64,000 nt of DNA from Escherichia phage vB_EcoM-UFV10, in sequence record OP555981.1. One strand, 5' to 3'. This document shows positions 4,604-63,566 of this stretch, piece after piece. The first letter of the stretch is position 1, and every line of letters begins with the position of its first letter. Made by a program: the position numbers and the translations under genes. The notes below the pieces were generated by a model that had not been told where the DNA came from, did not search any database, and was given only the letters and a program-made list of their open reading frames with translations.

Positions 4604-4974
4604 TTAAATTTAATGGCTTGAAGGAGACTAATAATTCTCAAACGGCTTCTTTCATCTTTAACTGTAAAAGAAAGAGGGTCGCCAGATTTCATGGTAATAG
4701 TGCATTCAAAATCAAAATCTTCAGTGACTTCTTCGAAGAAGTCAAATTCTTCATCATAAATTAGAACACTACTTTGCAGACTGTGAAGAGTTTTTCCAGC
4801 ATTTCTGCTAACTGCTGTACTAATCATTGTAACATTATGACCTTTCATATCTTCAACGATAAATTCACTAGTCAATATTACAGCATTAATAGAACTATTC
4901 CTATTACTAACAGAAAGTAGAAATTTCTGTTCTTCACCTTCACGAATACGATATTTCTTACCAATTTTAAACAT
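4600..4974 (-). CDS. hypothetical protein
   Basis: 124-aa ORF, ATG start, stop overlaps next start. Confidence 0.45.
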   Translation of the reverse strand: MFKIGKKYRIREGEEQKFLLSVSNRNSSINAVILTSEFIVEDMKGHNVTMISTAVSRNAGKTLHSLQSSVLIYDEEFDFFEEVTEDFDFECTITMKSGDPLSFTVKDERSRLRIISLLQAIKFK

Positions 4975-4976
4975 AA

Positions 4977-5153
4977 TTACCCTTTAAGTAAATCGTAAAA
5001 TCCACCATTCACATGCTTAGGAGCAGAAGGCCGACGAGTAGACAAACGATGACATTTAGGACAAACATCATTTTCTCGTTCAGAAATCTTTTTAATTTTT
5101 TCATATTCATGCCCGCAATCTTCGGATTGGCATTTATAATCATACATTGGCAT
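4977..5153 (-). CDS. small zinc-ribbon protein (CxxC...CxxC)
   Basis: 58-aa ORF below the track cutoff, read by hand: MPMYDYKCQSEDCGHEYEKIKKISERENDVCPKCHRL...; fits exactly between neighbouring genes. Confidence 0.5.
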   Translation of the reverse strand: MPMYDYKCQSEDCGHEYEKIKKISERENDVCPKCHRLSTRRPSAPKHVNGGFYDLLKG

Positions 5154-5155
5154 AA

Positions 5156-5581
5156 TTATTCCTTAAAATGGGCTTTCAGCATCTGATACAAAGACCACGC
5201 CTGTTCATTATTTTCAATAGTAACTTTCATGACCGGGAATTCTGTGAAATCTTCTATCTGTTCTTGCTCTTTCTCTTCCTGCTCTTGCTCTTCGGCTGCC
5301 TGGTATGGATTTTCCACTTCATCAAAGAACACAGCTTCGCTCGTTGAAAGCCAGATAAAATCTTCATCCAAAATATCTTTACCAGAAGATAACGCCAATT
5401 TTCCACTAGATGTCACAAGTTTAGTAGGACGACCAAGATAGTCAATATCTGTAACTCTAAAAGGTTCCATACCAAGACGACGTGCATAAATTCCGTTTTC
5501 AGTATGGTCCTTGATAAAATCTTCTTGAGCTTGTTTATTTTTAAATTGATACCATTTATTAACTTCAAATTTAATAGCCAT
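5156..5581 (-). CDS. acidic hypothetical protein (possibly goF-like by size and position)
   Basis: 141-aa ORF with acidic [12 protein letters not shown] stretch; T4 goF is also 141 aa at this position but identity not verified. Confidence 0.45.
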
Positions 5582-5796
5582 TAATAAGTTTCCTTCCAGT
5601 AAGTTGTGCCATCTTCAGTAATTTCACGAAACACACCATAAATTGGTTGTTTATCACCAACTTTTTCGTACACATAAACCGAAGTCAAGTGAGTAAACTT
5701 AACGGTATGTTCCTTTTGAACCACTACCAAATCTGGATCAAATAATACATCTTCAAATTCGTCATTAGTGCAATTCTGAACAATTTTACGTTTCAT
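5581..5796 (-). CDS. hypothetical protein
   Basis: 71-aa ORF, ATG start, TAATG overlap with upstream gene. Confidence 0.4.
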
Positions 5797-5809
5797 TACA
5801 ATTTCCTCA

Positions 5810-6079
5810 TTAATTGAACAGTGGAGCGATGCGTTTCAGAAGAGTAGCAGCACCTTTAGCGAATTTTACATCATGAAAAACAGTTTCTTCTTCCGTTACA
5901 ACACGAGCTTTAATGTTTTCACAATCCCAATTTTTGCGAACAATCTTCAAAAGCTGCAGTAAATCTTTACATTCAACAATATCGATAACACATCCACGAG
6001 AATCTTCCATTATCGCACGATAACCGTAAGCCATACCATAATCGTTGAAAGATTGCTCGATGATAATTAAGTTTTCCAT
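5810..6079 (-). CDS. hypothetical protein
   Basis: 89 aa from internal ATG (track start is TTG inside the conserved leader); preceded by GGAGAATAAAATG leader and early promoter. Confidence 0.5.
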   Translation of the reverse strand: MENLIIIEQSFNDYGMAYGYRAIMEDSRGCVIDIVECKDLLQLLKIVRKNWDCENIKARVVTEEETVFHDVKFAKGAATLLKRIAPLFN

Positions 6080-6122
6080 TTTATTCTCCAAGTTATTTTC
6101 TGTATCAGTAGTTGATATTGAT

Positions 6123-6151
6123 ATAGTACCATAATCAACTACTGATGTATA
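6123..6151 (-). promoter_or_regulatory. early promoter with flanking 11-bp inverted repeat
   Basis: minus strand TATACA-17bp-TACTAT; inverted repeat CAGTAGTTGAT / ATCAACTACTG (about 6106-6116 and 6134-6144) brackets the -10. Confidence 0.45.
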
Positions 6152-6176
6152 TAGTTTTATGAAAAAATTTTAAACT

Positions 6177-6668
6177 TTATGCATAGCGAGCTTTGCTATA
6201 GTGTTTAATCCAACTTTCAGGAATGACTTTGTATGTTCCTAAATATACCGCGTTGTACAGCTTAACACCGTCTTCTACCCACTGATCAGTAATGTATGCA
6301 CACATAGCGCGAGTACGGTTAACAACACCTTCCTCACCTTCAGTAAATTCGAATTCATAAGGAGCAACGAACTTGATAGCTTGACCGAGTTTCCACTTAA
6401 AGTCTACACCTACATGTGAAGTATCAATCGTTTCAATTCCTTTAGCAGGAACAGCTTTCAAAAACGCAGACTCAAGAAATTTCGCACGAACATAGCCAAA
6501 CTGAGGTTTAGACTTTCCATCTTTAGGAATGATACGCACTTTTACTTCAGAATCTTCATCTTTAACACCATGTTTAAGCTGAATGCTTACAATTTCGACC
6601 AATTTTCCTGCTGCTTTAGAGCGGGATTTATCAGATACACGAGCTAATTCACCAATATTAATAATCAT
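6177..6668 (-). CDS. MotB-like protein (by size and synteny)
   Basis: 163-aa ORF at the motB position; C-terminal ITDQWVEDGVKLYNAVYLGTYKVIPESW motif shared with the next ORF. Confidence 0.45.
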   Translation of the reverse strand: MIINIGELARVSDKSRSKAAGKLVEIVSIQLKHGVKDEDSEVKVRIIPKDGKSKPQFGYVRAKFLESAFLKAVPAKGIETIDTSHVGVDFKWKLGQAIKFVAPYEFEFTEGEEGVVNRTRAMCAYITDQWVEDGVKLYNAVYLGTYKVIPESWIKHYSKARYA

Positions 6669-14093: not shown

Positions 14094-14553
14094 TTATTTT
14101 ACCTAAAACAATAGTATGGACACCGTCAAATTTATGAATTTTTAGCAAATTAGGATTTAAATTATTCCATAAAGAGGTAATAAAATATGATAGCGCACTT
14201 TCGTCCGTAATTATAAATTTATTTCCCTTATCAATTTTCCAGTCATATATTGAATCATATGAATAGAAGGATAACGGTTTATTGTTATAGTATGCTTTAG
14301 CAACATCAATATAGTTAGATTTAGTAAATGCTTGAATTGCCATAAATGGAGAATTTTGTACAGTTTCAATAATTCCGATCTTTTTAAGTTTTATTTCAAC
14401 ATCTTCTGGAACTGGCATTGAAATAAAATCTTCTACTAGATACATGTTATTGTCATATCTTTTATCAATCATTACTGCTACGGTAATTGGAACATCCTTG
14501 ACAAACGCCATACTAATACTATTGATAGACATTTCAAACAAAATCGCTTCCAT
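14068..14553 (-). CDS. hypothetical protein
   Basis: 161 aa from internal ATG behind GAGGAA; track start is TTG. Confidence 0.45.
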
Positions 14554-16215: not shown

Positions 16216-16416
16216 ATGGTACAAAAATTAATGGCACTTGTTAATGCCATCAAAGGTAATAAGAAACGTATAGCTTTTACTATTTCTGCTATGGTAGGAA
16301 TTTTACTCTGGAACTTTATTTTATCACCAATTGCAATTGCGCATGGTGTTAATATTCCAGTAGTTACTCTTGATACATTCGTAGATCTAGCATTTGCTTT
16401 AGTTGGGTTGATTTAA
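16216..16416 (+). CDS. putative small membrane protein on the opposite strand
   Basis: 66-aa ORF, AAGGAGG 4 nt before ATG, two hydrophobic segments; sits in the 56-61 intergenic region. Confidence 0.35.
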   Translation: MVQKLMALVNAIKGNKKRIAFTISAMVGILLWNFILSPIAIAHGVNIPVVTLDTFVDLAFALVGLI

Positions 16417-17441
16417 ATCTTAGCATATTTAGATAGCCGCATTTTAGCCATCAACCCCTGGGCAATATTATTTTTCATATATTCCATAATTTGTTCAGGG
16501 GTTGCACCTTCCTTTCTAATCATATCATTAACATCTTTAGATTTCCAGGGAGATTTATCCCAAAACATAACCCTTTCTCCTGCATCAACTAATTTAGTCA
16601 TTCGTTTGATAGTGTCAGGGTGACGAGGTTCATTATCTAAAACCCACACTCGTCTATCTTTAAATGGAACAATTTCTAGGTCTAATTGACCACCCGTAAT
16701 AGCTATACCATTTTCAATAAAAAGTGAATCTATAGGTCCTTCTAGAACATATACATCGCCATCTTTAACTCGTTCGACTCCATAGATTTTTGTTGCCTCA
16801 GGATAAGCTTTAATGGTGATATATTTTTGAGGAGCATTTTTCTTTAATGCACGCCCTTGAAACGACTCGGCTTTTCCGTTAGCATTATAAATTGGAATAA
16901 CAAGACGAGGCTCAGGTATTTCCTTTTTATATGTTCCCGGTGCTATGCTATTAACCAATTTAGGCCATTCGGTTGTAAACCAAAGATATTTCCATTTATC
17001 CTTTGGAATACAACGAGCTTTTACGTATTTTATAATTGGATGGTCTTCCGCCAGTTTATCTAATCTAACACATGACGGAAGAGATTTAATTATTTTCTTC
17101 TCAGGTTGTTTAGGAAGTTCTTTAGGTTTTTCTACTGGACGACTTTTACCTTTTTCTTTTCTTATTTCAAAGATATACTCACGATATAAATCAGGTTCAA
17201 ACTCCTTTAAATATATTCCGATTGGTGCGTGATAGTTACAGTTATAACAATGAATATTTCCTTCATTATTATCACCATAATACCATCCACGAGCTTTATT
17301 CTGGTCGGTTTTTGAATCTCCACAAACGGGGCATCTAAACCGCAATTTAAAAGTTGAACTATTATTTACTTGTGTGAATTTAGGTAAATGAGCCAATGCA
17401 CGATACGCAAACTCATTATCAATCCAAGGTATTGATGACAT
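16413..17441 (-). CDS. 61: DNA primase
   Basis: 342 aa, zinc-binding CPVCGDSKTDQNKARGWYY..., toprim region; matches T4 gp61 length and position. Confidence 0.9.
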   Translation of the reverse strand: MSSIPWIDNEFAYRALAHLPKFTQVNNSSTFKLRFRCPVCGDSKTDQNKARGWYYGDNNEGNIHCYNCNYHAPIGIYLKEFEPDLYREYIFEIRKEKGKSRPVEKPKELPKQPEKKIIKSLPSCVRLDKLAEDHPIIKYVKARCIPKDKWKYLWFTTEWPKLVNSIAPGTYKKEIPEPRLVIPIYNANGKAESFQGRALKKNAPQKYITIKAYPEATKIYGVERVKDGDVYVLEGPIDSLFIENGIAITGGQLDLEIVPFKDRRVWVLDNEPRHPDTIKRMTKLVDAGERVMFWDKSPWKSKDVNDMIRKEGATPEQIMEYMKNNIAQGLMAKMRLSKYAKI

Positions 17442-17443
17442 TT

Positions 17444-17608
17444 TTACTCTTCTTTTTCTTTAGATTCCTCTTTTTTCTTTTTAGGAATCTGTTCAGGACC
17501 TTTATTTACTACAGCACCTGATGTTGTTCCAGTAGAGATATTTTCAGGATTACCACCTGAATCTCCAGCAACCATATCTTCTTTAATAAATTCTTTATAT
17601 GTTTTCAT
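17444..17608 (-). CDS. small protein with capsid-targeting-sequence-like N-terminus
   Basis: 54-aa ORF read by hand: MKTYKEFIKEDMVAGDSGGNPENISTGTTSGAVVNKGPEQIPKKKKEESKEKEE; GAGGT SD; same MKTYKEFI start as 62759-63232 and 63249-63566. Confidence 0.5.
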   Translation of the reverse strand: MKTYKEFIKEDMVAGDSGGNPENISTGTTSGAVVNKGPEQIPKKKKEESKEKEE

Positions 17609-17652
17609 ATTAACCTCTATTCATAAAAGCATTAAAAATTTGGTCATCAATC
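17606..17652. repeat. 47-bp junction repeat, copy A
   Basis: CATATTAACCT(C/T)TATTCATAAAAGCATTAAAAATTTG...; 3 mismatches to copy B at 17964-18010. Confidence 0.8.
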
Positions 17653-17966
17653 GATGGAATAGCAACTTTTTCTGCATCATTTAGCAAATCATTAATTTCA
17701 TCAGATAGCATAACACATGTACCTTTATTTCCTGTAATTGTTACTGCACAATTACGAACGTTTTCTTTATTAAATTTTAGGTTAATATTTTCGTAATGAA
17801 AATCCTTTAATGCTGAATATATTTTTAAAATAAAATTGTCTTTTACTACAATAAACCCAACCTCACTATTAAAACGTGGTTCATGGAAACTGTAATAAAC
17901 CTTTTCATCTATAAAATCGTATGAAATTTTTTCCATTTTTAAATATGAAAATTCAGAACTATACAT
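17610..17966 (-). CDS. hypothetical protein
   Basis: 118-aa ORF; C-terminus SIDDQIFNAFMNRG shared with upstream ORF. Confidence 0.45.
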   Translation of the reverse strand: MYSSEFSYLKMEKISYDFIDEKVYYSFHEPRFNSEVGFIVVKDNFILKIYSALKDFHYENINLKFNKENVRNCAVTITGNKGTCVMLSDEINDLLNDAEKVAIPSIDDQIFNAFMNRG

Positions 17967-18010
17967 ATTAACCTTTATTCATAAAAGCATTAAAAATTTG
18001 ATCGTCAATA
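17964..18010. repeat. 47-bp junction repeat, copy B
   Basis: near-identical to 17606-17652; covers C-terminal codons, stop, SD and next start. Confidence 0.8.
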
Positions 18011-18600
18011 GAAACTTTTACTTTAGGATGTTCTTCAAACGGTAATTCATATCCACATATTACAATTTTGTGATCGATACCAAAATACACAGAAGCAATA
18101 TGATTAATATTATTTTCAGTGAAATCTAAATCAACATCAATATCTTTTTGACTAACGCTCAAAGGATAATTAATACGAATAATTCGATTATCTTTAACAA
18201 AGATTCCACCGACATACTCTGTGTTGCGTTTAAAGTTTACACGTTTCCTAAATGAAAAATATTCAGGTTCTTTATGAGCCCGACTCATAGGACACAATGA
18301 GTAGCTAGAATAAGAGATGTCAAATCCTACACCTTCAATATGAGCCAACGTGTCATGATTAAACCAATTATAATCATACGCCAAATCCATTATATTGTAA
18401 TATGTGAAAGGCACCGGATTAACATCATATATTGTACCTTTAAAATCTGCCCAGGCAACGATTTCATTATCTTTAACAATTACAAAAATTGTGCCAATAA
18501 GATATCCACGGTTATTTTCATCAGGCGTTATATTATAACATTGTGCATCAGGAAATTTACCGTATTTAAACGGTGGATTTTTGTGCATATAATAAATCAT
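17968..18600 (-). CDS. hypothetical protein
   Basis: 210 aa from ATG (track start is GTG); C-terminus SIDDQIFNAFMNKG. Confidence 0.45.
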   Translation of the reverse strand: MIYYMHKNPPFKYGKFPDAQCYNITPDENNRGYLIGTIFVIVKDNEIVAWADFKGTIYDVNPVPFTYYNIMDLAYDYNWFNHDTLAHIEGVGFDISYSSYSLCPMSRAHKEPEYFSFRKRVNFKRNTEYVGGIFVKDNRIIRINYPLSVSQKDIDVDLDFTENNINHIASVYFGIDHKIVICGYELPFEEHPKVKVSIDDQIFNAFMNKG

Positions 18601-18601
18601 A

Positions 18602-18895
18602 TTATTCACCTGTGATTTCGGTTACGATATCTTTGTTATCAAAATTAGGGTCACAATACAAAACATAGTTATACTGCATCACACCACCTGATTTAAGCTG
18701 TTTTTGTACTTCAACTTTCATATTGGGACGATCACGCTCAACGATATTCATAATATCCGCTTCAATTTGAGTTTCAACTTCAGTCTGATCTGCAGTCATA
18801 GACCATTCACACAAATCTTTATCATAACCTGCCATAGCAGGCTGAGCAGCACAAGAAGCTAAAGCAAAAATTGCAGCAAAGATAAATTTTTTCAT
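18602..18895 (-). CDS. sp: periplasmic spackle-like protein
   Basis: 97 aa with signal peptide MKKFIFAAIFALASCAAQPAMA; size and position match T4 Sp. Confidence 0.65.
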   Translation of the reverse strand: MKKFIFAAIFALASCAAQPAMAGYDKDLCEWSMTADQTEVETQIEADIMNIVERDRPNMKVEVQKQLKSGGVMQYNYVLYCDPNFDNKDIVTEITGE

Positions 18896-62758: not shown

Positions 62759-63232
62759 TTATTTGAATGATTTAACGTACTGAATAGAACCTTTACTATT
62801 CACAAAGGCAATTTTACCATTTTTGTTATACATAGTAGCAGTACGTTGATAGCCATAAGTTTGTTTACCAGATTGATAACCAACTAATGCGAAATTATCT
62901 TCACCCATTTTATTCTGTTTAGCGCGAATGCGTTCATGACCATGTGCCATAAGAACCTTAGCATCACCAGTTGCAATGGACCGACGAGTTTTTTCATCTT
63001 CAACTGTATTAACAAAGTCGTCAAATGAATCAAATTTAGCATGAGATTTATTATACAGTTTTCCATCTACTGCATAATTATATCCTTGTACATCCATCTC
63101 AACTTCTGTACCATCATCTAATACCGCAGTAATTTTCTGTCCTTTTTTAAATTTCAAAAGATCAGTAAAAGATTCAGCAATAATTTGAGAATTAATAGCT
63201 GCTTCAGTAATAAATTCTTTATACGTTTTCAT
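62759..63232 (-). CDS. internal head protein with capsid targeting sequence
   Basis: 157 aa; N-terminus MKTYKEFITEA like the T4 IPII/IPIII CTS; adjacent to e. Confidence 0.65.
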   Translation of the reverse strand: MKTYKEFITEAAINSQIIAESFTDLLKFKKGQKITAVLDDGTEVEMDVQGYNYAVDGKLYNKSHAKFDSFDDFVNTVEDEKTRRSIATGDAKVLMAHGHERIRAKQNKMGEDNFALVGYQSGKQTYGYQRTATMYNKNGKIAFVNSKGSIQYVKSFK

Positions 63233-63248
63233 GTGTATCCTTTAATTT

Positions 63249-63566
63249 TTATTCTTTAGGGAAGTTTTTAGAATATGCATCATAAAGCTTATTTCCAATA
63301 CGGCGGAAAACTCTAGCCGCAAAACGATTTTCTGGGTTTTTAATCATGATTTGCATCATATAAGTACCCGCGTCAGAAAGAGCTTCTTCATAGTACCCGT
63401 TAATTTCTTTAAGAGTCCTACGTTTACCACCAGGACCATCAACAGTGATTTTCCATTTACCTGTAGAAGTGCGACTTGGCGGTTCAACTTGTTCAATCCA
63501 GATATAACCGCCTTCTACACGCTGTCCTGCAACAGATTCTGCAATAAATTCTTTATACGTTTTCAT
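63249..63566 (-). CDS. internal head protein with capsid targeting sequence
   Basis: 105 aa; N-terminus MKTYKEFIAES; basic; directly downstream of e. Confidence 0.65.
   Translation of the reverse strand: MKTYKEFIAESVAGQRVEGGYIWIEQVEPPSRTSTGKWKITVDGPGGKRRTLKEINGYYEEALSDAGTYMMQIMIKNPENRFAARVFRRIGNKLYDAYSKNFPKE

Follow-up and report, generated by a model that had tools for sequence, protein, structure and literature searches.

What does gene 61.1 of the T4-like phages encode? T4 head assembly has been heavily studied, yet this gene, conserved in most non-cyanophage T4-like genera, stands without an assigned function. We analysed it in a 64,000-nucleotide stretch of Escherichia phage vB_EcoM-UFV10 (OP555981.1; hereafter the window), which over the tested stretch is 100% identical to Escherichia phage vB_EcoM-UFV09 (Tequatrovirus, RB51/AR1/wV7 group). 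A sequence-only reading of the window had singled out a 54-aa open reading frame (ORF) next to the primase gene, seen in it the N-terminus of a capsid targeting sequence (CTS), and proposed a tiny peptide that is packaged and injected with the DNA, as IPI-type anti-restriction effectors are. The ORF is indeed present on the minus strand behind a GAGG ribosome-binding site, and it is annotated already as gene 61.1 ("gp61.1 hypothetical protein") in RB51, T4 and AR1, the T4 protein differing from that of the window at 2 of 54 residues (T4 reads MKTFKEFIKE...ISIG...). It belongs to phrog_1823 ("T4 GC1491"), the orthologous group of T4 gene 61.1, both by profile match (residues 1-54 against positions 1-54 of 54, E 7e-34) and by its strand and position between genes 41 and 61. 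The gene and its parts are the following.

17444..17608, minus strand: gene 61.1 ORF, 54 codons plus TAA stop, ATG start, product MKTYKEFIKEDMVAGDSGGNPENISTGTTSGAVVNKGPEQIPKKKKEESKEKEE, matching phrog_1823
17614..17617, minus strand: GAGG ribosome-binding site, 6 nt 5' of the 61.1 ATG, as read from the sequence
17579..17608, minus strand: leader MKTYKEFIKE, codons 1-10, CTS-like, counterpart of the final 10 residues of the gp23 propeptide (AQAFGSFLTE)
17579-17581, minus strand: codon of E10, after which a gp21 cut is predicted, in register with gp23 L-T-E65
17495..17578, minus strand: N-fist-like core, codons 11-38, DMVAGDSGGNPENISTGTTSGAVVNKGP, homologous to gp23 66-93
17447..17494, minus strand: linker and charged tail, codons 39-54, EQIPKKKKEESKEKEE, the conserved part being the lysine block

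Given that several GenBank records name this ORF "major capsid protein" or "major capsid domain-containing protein", we compared gp61.1 with T4 gp23. Residues 2-38 of gp61.1 align without gaps to gp23 57-93, with 16 of 37 identical (43%; E 1e-8 in pairwise BLASTP), and I-K-E10 falls exactly in register with L-T-E65 of gp23, the gp21 cut that removes the 65-residue propeptide. The match is not an artefact of composition, as its Smith-Waterman score of 80 stands against 29 +/- 4.4 in 5000 composition-preserving shuffles (maximum 55, 0/5000 reaching the observed score, Gumbel P ~2e-7). Family against family (hhalign of a 27-sequence gp61.1 alignment with gp23 N-termini of five genera), the homology has a probability of 98% with an E of 1.6e-13, spans gp23 55-102 and thus holds across genera. 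A PDB-wide profile search (hmmsearch) gave significant matches only to T4 gp23 (58-101, E 7e-10) and to mature gp23* (2-36, E 7e-7). The two families have in common the L/I-x-E site and a set of invariant Gly, Asp and Pro positions, and the four invariant positions of the gp61.1 core (G15, D16, G27 and G31) are the invariant G70, D71, G82 and G86 of gp23. We hold it effectively certain that gp61.1 is paralogous to a fragment of gp23, namely the maturation junction and N-fist.

The likeness has clear borders. Past a shared "GP" the sequences diverge fully, gp23 running on into AVMGMVRRAIPN (in general AV(I/M)GMVRRAIPN) and gp61.1 into its lysine-rich tail, and the homology ends at gp23 residue ~93-102. 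The Gol peptide of gp23 may start immediately past residue 93, but we base no claim on this. Within the core the invariant H72 and Y74 of gp23 are replaced in gp61.1 by S/A and G, respectively, and 61.1 belongs to the early replication cluster, ~85 kb from gene 23. With only 54 residues gp61.1 has no HK97-fold body and no Pfam match (the gp23 family being PF07068), hence it is not a capsid protein despite the database names; scans of gp61.1 and its long forms with Pfam, NCBIfam and PADLOC returned no meaningful match. The names themselves recur: 50-60-aa ORFs of KP185, Roth17, BL02, PhaR5, pSe_SNUABM_01, teqdroes and T6 (AP018814) are automatically called "major capsid protein", "putative major capsid protein" or "putative head morphogenesis protein". 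Such labels are misleading as product names, yet they are rooted in real partial homology. What was known before is thus an annotated gene with a capsid-protein likeness flagged by automated pipelines; in the literature searched, gp61.1 occurs in gene tables only (HIDEN-SEQ does not mention it), and the gp23 homology, the in-register cleavage site and the N-fist correspondence are not discussed.

The N-fist is gp23 66-91, the 26 residues at the N-terminus of mature gp23*; it is disordered inside the unexpanded head, shifts to the outer surface upon expansion, and on the expanded shell touches four subunits and helps to form the Soc site. Within the unexpanded head, gp23 66-105 lies inside and probably touches the scaffolding core (PMC9546572), so the copy carried by gp61.1 plausibly has the same affinity. 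Residue E65, by contrast, is absent from the mature protein, and its conservation therefore reflects cleavage. In HK97 gp5 and T5 pb8, too, an N-terminal capsid segment contacts the core or scaffold, and the prohead protease removes or rearranges it, but there the segment lies within the capsid protein, whereas here a separate small gene copies the junction.

The gene is widespread. It was found by tblastn in 1432 phage records from Escherichia, Klebsiella, Shigella, Aeromonas, Acinetobacter, Enterobacter, Yersinia, Salmonella, Vibrio, Proteus, Morganella and other genera, and an exhaustive hidden Markov model search of 1.84 billion representative proteins gave 51 clusters at 50% identity. What is conserved in the relatives is the coding frame itself, and not merely the promoter or ribosome-binding site upstream of it, as the sequence-only reading had allowed for; that 61.1 is a real, conserved gene is effectively certain. 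Its products come in two architectures, a short one of ~50-70 aa and a long one of ~120-250 aa with the core near the C-terminus. Glutamate occupies the P1-equivalent position in all 54 representatives and P3 is hydrophobic in 50 of them (L or I in 33; background 0.033 per residue), while at least five K/R follow within 22 residues after the core in 51. The length upstream of the P1 Glu ranges from ~5 to ~140 residues, so that nothing at this junction is better conserved than this Glu and the hydrophobic P3, while the part upstream varies freely.

The long forms (phrog_2086), e.g., gp61.1 of KVP40 and VH7D (159 aa) or KP27_034 (162 aa), share the core, the cleavage motif, the basic tail and the position upstream of the primase, but in place of the 10-residue leader they bear a conserved N-domain of ~100 aa (W..A...GIID..G...P.T..EK..YT.FH..VR..K) that is predicted to be helical and whose fold found no informative match in PDB. 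The leader, which had been taken as the telling feature, is thus not what the family conserves, as many orthologues carry this folded domain instead. Three metagenomic representatives go further still, with a second CTS-like motif (M.EV..FK.FVE[GS]) and a ~90-aa extra domain after the tail; this domain had no tblastn match in GenBank phages.

Metagenomic contig L015, 6001-6756: fused form P0053 (likewise P0037 and P0058), with N-domain, cleavage motif, N-fist-like core and basic tail, then the second CTS-like motif and domain

The T-even leader deserves attention on its own account, and two further genes of the window, together with T4 gene 23, serve as comparison.

62759-63232 and 63249-63566, minus strand: two internal-protein-type genes (157 aa and 105 aa), starting MKTYKEFITEA and MKTYKEFIAES
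63203-63232 and 63537-63566, minus strand: their leaders, compared for the origin of the CTS with T4 gp23 56-65 (gene at 4946-6511 of the T4 sequence used)

Both ORFs lie directly downstream of a T4-type lysozyme gene (its C-terminus read at ~63.6-64.0 kb), and the 157-aa ORF matches the PHROG "internal virion protein". The resemblance that had been noticed by eye is borne out, the 61.1 leader being identical to either internal-protein (IP) leader at 9/10 residues and 27/30 nt, far beyond chance. Genetics of the IPIII CTS assigned residues 4 and 7 to targeting and residues 8 and 10 to processing, and showed that its 10 residues suffice to package foreign proteins (PMC9026906). By sequence gp61.1 has all four determinants, Y4 (F4 in T4), F7, I8 and E10, and I8-K9-E10 matches the (L/I)-x-E processing motif at the leader end, gp21 cleaving after Glu within I/L-x-E motifs (PMC12991175). 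CTS-like leaders are seen in 13 of 23 short gp61.1 leaders, from diverse lineages. The peptide predicted to remain after cleavage has, as had been foreseen, 44 aa (4.6 kDa, pI 5.0, 41% G/S/T/A/N) and ends in the KKKK-acidic tail KKKKEESKEKEE.

With IPI, IPII and IPIII, and with the CTS-bearing, gp21-processed core proteins Alt, gp67 and gp68, gp61.1 shares a 10-residue leader that almost equals the IP CTS of its own genome, the residues at positions 4, 7, 8 and 10, early RNA and dispensability in the laboratory. Internal proteins, however, are poorly conserved and basic, while the mature part of gp61.1 is conserved, short, mildly acidic and predicted to be disordered, and whereas internal proteins carry a CTS many gp61.1 orthologues do without it. 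At the level of its sequence gp61.1 thus resembles a CTS-bearing core protein, and we do not class it as an internal protein.

The same comparison bears on where the CTS came from. The IP CTS (MKTYQEFIAE) resembles the end of the gp23 propeptide (AQAFGSFLTE, gp23 56-65) at positions 4, 7, 8 and 10, i.e., F59, F62, L63 and E65, and because these are exactly the four genetically important positions, the likeness suggests that the IP CTS imitates the end of the capsid propeptide or has its origin there, with gp61.1 bridging the two. It would point to gp23 as the source of a tag that is used in T4 protein-delivery engineering.

CTS-like N-termini also turned up elsewhere. The UvsW.1 orthologues of T4, RB49 and SW69-9 (plus strand, at 14211, 17833 and 19663 of the respective sequences) start M-x-x-F-K-x-[FY]-L-x-E-A, and a 103-aa ORF of the window (40885, minus strand) starts MISFERYVVES. 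The pattern reflects either a common way of starting an N-terminal helix or a larger number of CTS-tagged T4 proteins than is listed.

How, then, would such a protein act? We favour, tentatively and at somewhat less than even confidence, the view that gp61.1 is a small prohead-associated protein processed by gp21. It would consist of three modules, namely a leader, a hydrophobic-x-Glu site in the gp21 register, and a copy of the N-fist followed by a lysine-rich tail. Translated from early transcripts and persisting thereafter, gp61.1 would be recruited to the assembling prohead core by its leader and gp23-like segment, in the manner of the internal proteins and the gp23 N-terminus, whereupon gp21 would cut after Glu10 and release a peptide of ~44 residues (N-fist mimic plus charged tail; predicted sequence DMVAGDSGGNPENISIGTTSGAVVNK, N-terminus D11). 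The released peptide could remain with the DNA, leave with the scaffold fragments, or sit on the N-fist binding surfaces of the shell. This turns a "hypothetical protein" into a specific hypothesis, that of gp21 cleavage and presence in the head.

The steps of this proposal do not stand on equal footing. That gp61.1 is a gp21 substrate we infer because the conservation of E65 in gp23 can only reflect cleavage and the same Glu and hydrophobic P3 are conserved in gp61.1, and also because the T-even leader matches a CTS that was shown to work. In the sequence gp61.1 would appear as a natural minimal substrate of gp21, which is relevant as the cyclic-oligonucleotide-based antiphage signalling system (CBASS) of the host is reported to sense gp21 activity. 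Entry into the prohead is plausible by analogy, since the gp23 N-terminus is thought to contact the core and the IPIII CTS alone packages foreign proteins. The class of the T4 61.1 RNA is early (PMC9697503 supplement), and we count on the side of the proposal that the packaged internal proteins are also transcribed early ("early RNA, late protein"; PMC9697503 supplement). The fused metagenomic forms, with their second CTS-like motif and additional domain, and the co-occurrence with N-fist-type gp23 belong on this side as well.

Several observations weigh the other way. The protein class of T4 61.1 is "NA" in the time-course proteome (PMC9697503 supplement), though standard searches would easily miss a peptide with D11 at its N-terminus, which would be semi-tryptic. 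Early transcription also weighs on this side, and no late-promoter box (TATAAATA) was found upstream of 61.1 in the 41-61 cluster. The literature searched holds no report of gp61.1 being expressed at late times, found in proheads or virions, cleaved or injected; the supplement on T4 virion mass spectrometry (Ali 2017) shows only IPII, IPIII and Alt and nothing on 61.1. A CRISPRi-ART knock-down of T4 61.1 in laboratory E. coli scored -0.84 (p 0.93, "Not Fit"; PMC11879866 supplement), so that any role in assembly is non-essential there. As gp21 is active outside proheads, on soluble targets (PMC12991175), cleavage need not imply packaging, and CTS-like N-termini on the UvsW.1 orthologues make the leader motif less than specific, UvsW.1 not being known as a head protein. 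A disordered peptide of 4.6 kDa could moreover escape through the 14-17 Å capsomer openings thought to serve the scaffold fragments. Finally, a constant place between helicase and primase is unexpected for a head gene, yet gene 40, involved in head-vertex assembly, adjoins gene 41.

That place is indeed constant. In the window the minus-strand order is gene 41, dmd, 61.4 (tifA), sp, 61.2 (AdfA, Pfam PF23813), a truncated AdfA-like paralogue, 61.1 and 61, with 61.1 followed by its conserved partner.

16413..17441, minus strand: gene 61, DNA primase, immediately downstream of 61.1, conserved syntenic partner

Gene 61.1 lies on the same strand between helicase gene 41 and primase gene 61 in the window, RB51 and T4; in RB49, VH7D, KP27, SW69-9, 65.2 and DP45 its homologue is just upstream of the primase gene or close to it, and on the metagenomic T4-like contig L015 it is flanked by a DnaB-type helicase and, where the primase gene would be expected, by an unannotated 345-aa ORF. 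In the Aeromonas phages SW69-9 and 65.2 it is the sole gene between 41 and 61, which together with the constant position marks 61.1 as part of the conserved backbone, whereas the T-even counter-defence genes dmd, tifA, sp and adfA lie upstream of it. The packing is tight: the stop codon of the upstream AdfA-like ORF (17610-17612) ends 1 nt before the 61.1 ATG, suggesting translational coupling, and the 61.1 stop precedes the ATG of the primase gene by 2 nt. Gene 61.1 also co-occurs with N-fist-type gp23. The latter is present in 1518 phage records, against 1432 for gp61.1, with close counts per genus; in ~420 cyanophage records the gp23 matches are confined to the part past the N-fist, and cyanophages are absent among the gp61.1 matches listed. 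The co-occurrence is confounded by phylogeny and was seen with a tblastn sensitivity limited by the 54-aa query.

Against this background other readings of the gene can be weighed. The one with which the sequence-only reading began, i.e., a small CTS-tagged effector that enters the head, is delivered along with the DNA and acts early in the next infection like the anti-restriction protein IPI*, draws on the leader, with its 9/10 identity to the IP leaders and the four CTS determinants, on the packaging power of the 10-residue IPIII CTS, and on the fact that 61.1, as the internal proteins, is dispensable in the laboratory. The leader part of that proposal stands. The effector part fares worse, since the mature portion is a homologue of the gp23 N-fist rather than an effector-like fold, its core is predicted to be disordered in a model of the long form (predicted local distance difference test, pLDDT, of 56-68), and its profile is not that of an IPI-type protein: the core is kept across many genera where internal proteins are poorly conserved among T4 relatives, and it is mildly acidic (pI 5.0) where related T-even internal proteins are described as basic (PMC9026906). 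Long-form orthologues lack the CTS, moreover, and an unstructured peptide of 4.6 kDa may not stay in the head; we consider injection quite improbable. Another reading is a peptide, cut or uncut, that modulates assembly in trans by binding gp23 surfaces meant for a neighbour's N-fist, and that could fill the empty sites by gp24 vertices or the portal or else restrain premature association of gp23. Identical invariant residues in N-fist and core speak for it, as do the co-occurrence with N-fist-type gp23, an N-fist that folds only through contacts with four subunits, portal-facing N-fists that are disordered because the partner capsomer is lacking, and unassigned densities reported beneath gp24*. 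There is in addition a hint that gp61.1 resembles its own phage's gp23 more closely (77 vs 73.6, reached by 4/120 permutations), on which we do not rely because it is weak, comes from five related gp61.1/gp23 pairs only and is confounded by phylogeny. However, the accounts of near-atomic T4 capsids, in the parts available, mention no unassigned N-fist-like density, the unassigned density described there being helical and inside the shell, the gene is dispensable in the laboratory, and the conserved cleavage motif and basic tail would be left without explanation, so that a modulator of this kind seems rather unlikely, if the foremost of the alternatives. A bolder version, in which the gp21-cut N-fist peptide serves as a capsid arm in trans, filling the partnerless N-fist receptor surfaces by gp24 vertices or portal with its lysine tail on the DNA (and in which, as a corollary, the IP CTS derives from the gp23 propeptide end with gp61.1 as the link), we regard as unlikely; if true, a separately encoded piece of gp23 would complete or tune the T4 shell.

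Other readings would keep gp61.1 out of the head. The peptide may mimic the gp23 N-terminus and gp21 site in the cytoplasm, as an early decoy that blunts host sensors of capsid or protease, e.g., the activation loops of CBASS CD-NTases. The T-even 61.1 adjoins dmd, tifA (61.4) and adfA (61.2), with further genes there proposed as anti-toxin candidates, its RNA is early and the gene can be dispensed with in laboratory hosts, and hosts do sense gp21 activity via I/L-x-E loops while gp21 cuts soluble targets (PMC12991175). Its distribution is that of a different kind of gene: 61.1 is near-universal in non-cyanophage T4-like phages and the only 41-61 gene in two Aeromonas phages, and such near-universality argues for backbone and not for patchy accessory content, the accessory genes looking as if inserted upstream. 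Though it lies within the 41-61 interval in T-evens, it therefore lacks the accessory, patchy distribution expected of a counter-defence island. A plain substrate would also be a poor protease inhibitor in a phage that already has Inh, Acb1 and Acb2, and neither PADLOC nor other families gave a match; we judge the decoy unlikely. Should the peptide prove to bind the shell or to decoy a sensor, no small phage protein of that kind would have been known before. Position is the main asset of yet another view, by which gp61.1 is an accessory of the replication module whose lysine-rich tail binds DNA or the primosome, the gp23 likeness being an accident of domain capture. Every genus examined has the gene between helicase 41 and primase 61, alone in SW69-9 and 65.2, and it is transcribed early with the replication genes; its product has a basic tail, and its long forms bear a conserved N-domain that is modelled as folded. 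We nevertheless think this very unlikely. Least credible of all is the view that part of gene 23 was duplicated long ago and that 61.1 is what remains of the copy, without function and a mere passenger of a conserved operon. The knock-down without phenotype and the failure to detect the protein in one proteome would suit it, but what is seen is hardly what decay would leave: the frame is intact, its conservation is position-specific over 1432 phage records and 51 clusters, from genera so divergent that their DNA is no longer recognisably alike, and it has a good ribosome-binding site in a tightly packed operon.

The tail of the gene varies among close relatives. T6-type gp61.1 has 62 aa owing to a 1-nt deletion in the A-run AAAAAGAAAAAAGAGG (window 17447-17480, minus strand; translated by hand), whereby the ending KKKKEESKEKEE is replaced by KKKKRNLKKKKSKNVINTLD and the ORF comes to overlap the primase start; the basic block is retained and the acidic end lost. 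Programmed frameshifting on this A-run was rejected, because the T6-type tail stems from a 1-nt genomic deletion (+1 frame) and not from a -1 slip.

Two neighbours of 61.1 are worth recording. The 118-aa ORF upstream of it (17610-17966, minus strand) is a truncated paralogue of AdfA/gp61.2 (PF23813 positions 113-211, E 1.8e-8), an anti-DarT factor whose full-length gene is found at 17968-18609 (minus strand); it occurs in RB51-type phages ("RB32ORF033c") and is absent from T4. Its final 71 nt and those of the AdfA gene are identical at 49 of 71 positions, with the shared ending ...CAAATTTTTAATGCTTTTATGAATA[G/A]AGGTTAA, and both thus give the next gene the same ribosome-binding site and stop context. 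On the other side, a 66-aa hydrophobic ORF (16216-16416, plus strand) lies between gene 56 and the 3' end of gene 61; called RB32ORF030w in RB51 and "similar to RB69ORF029w", it is one of the few plus-strand genes within this minus-strand cluster.

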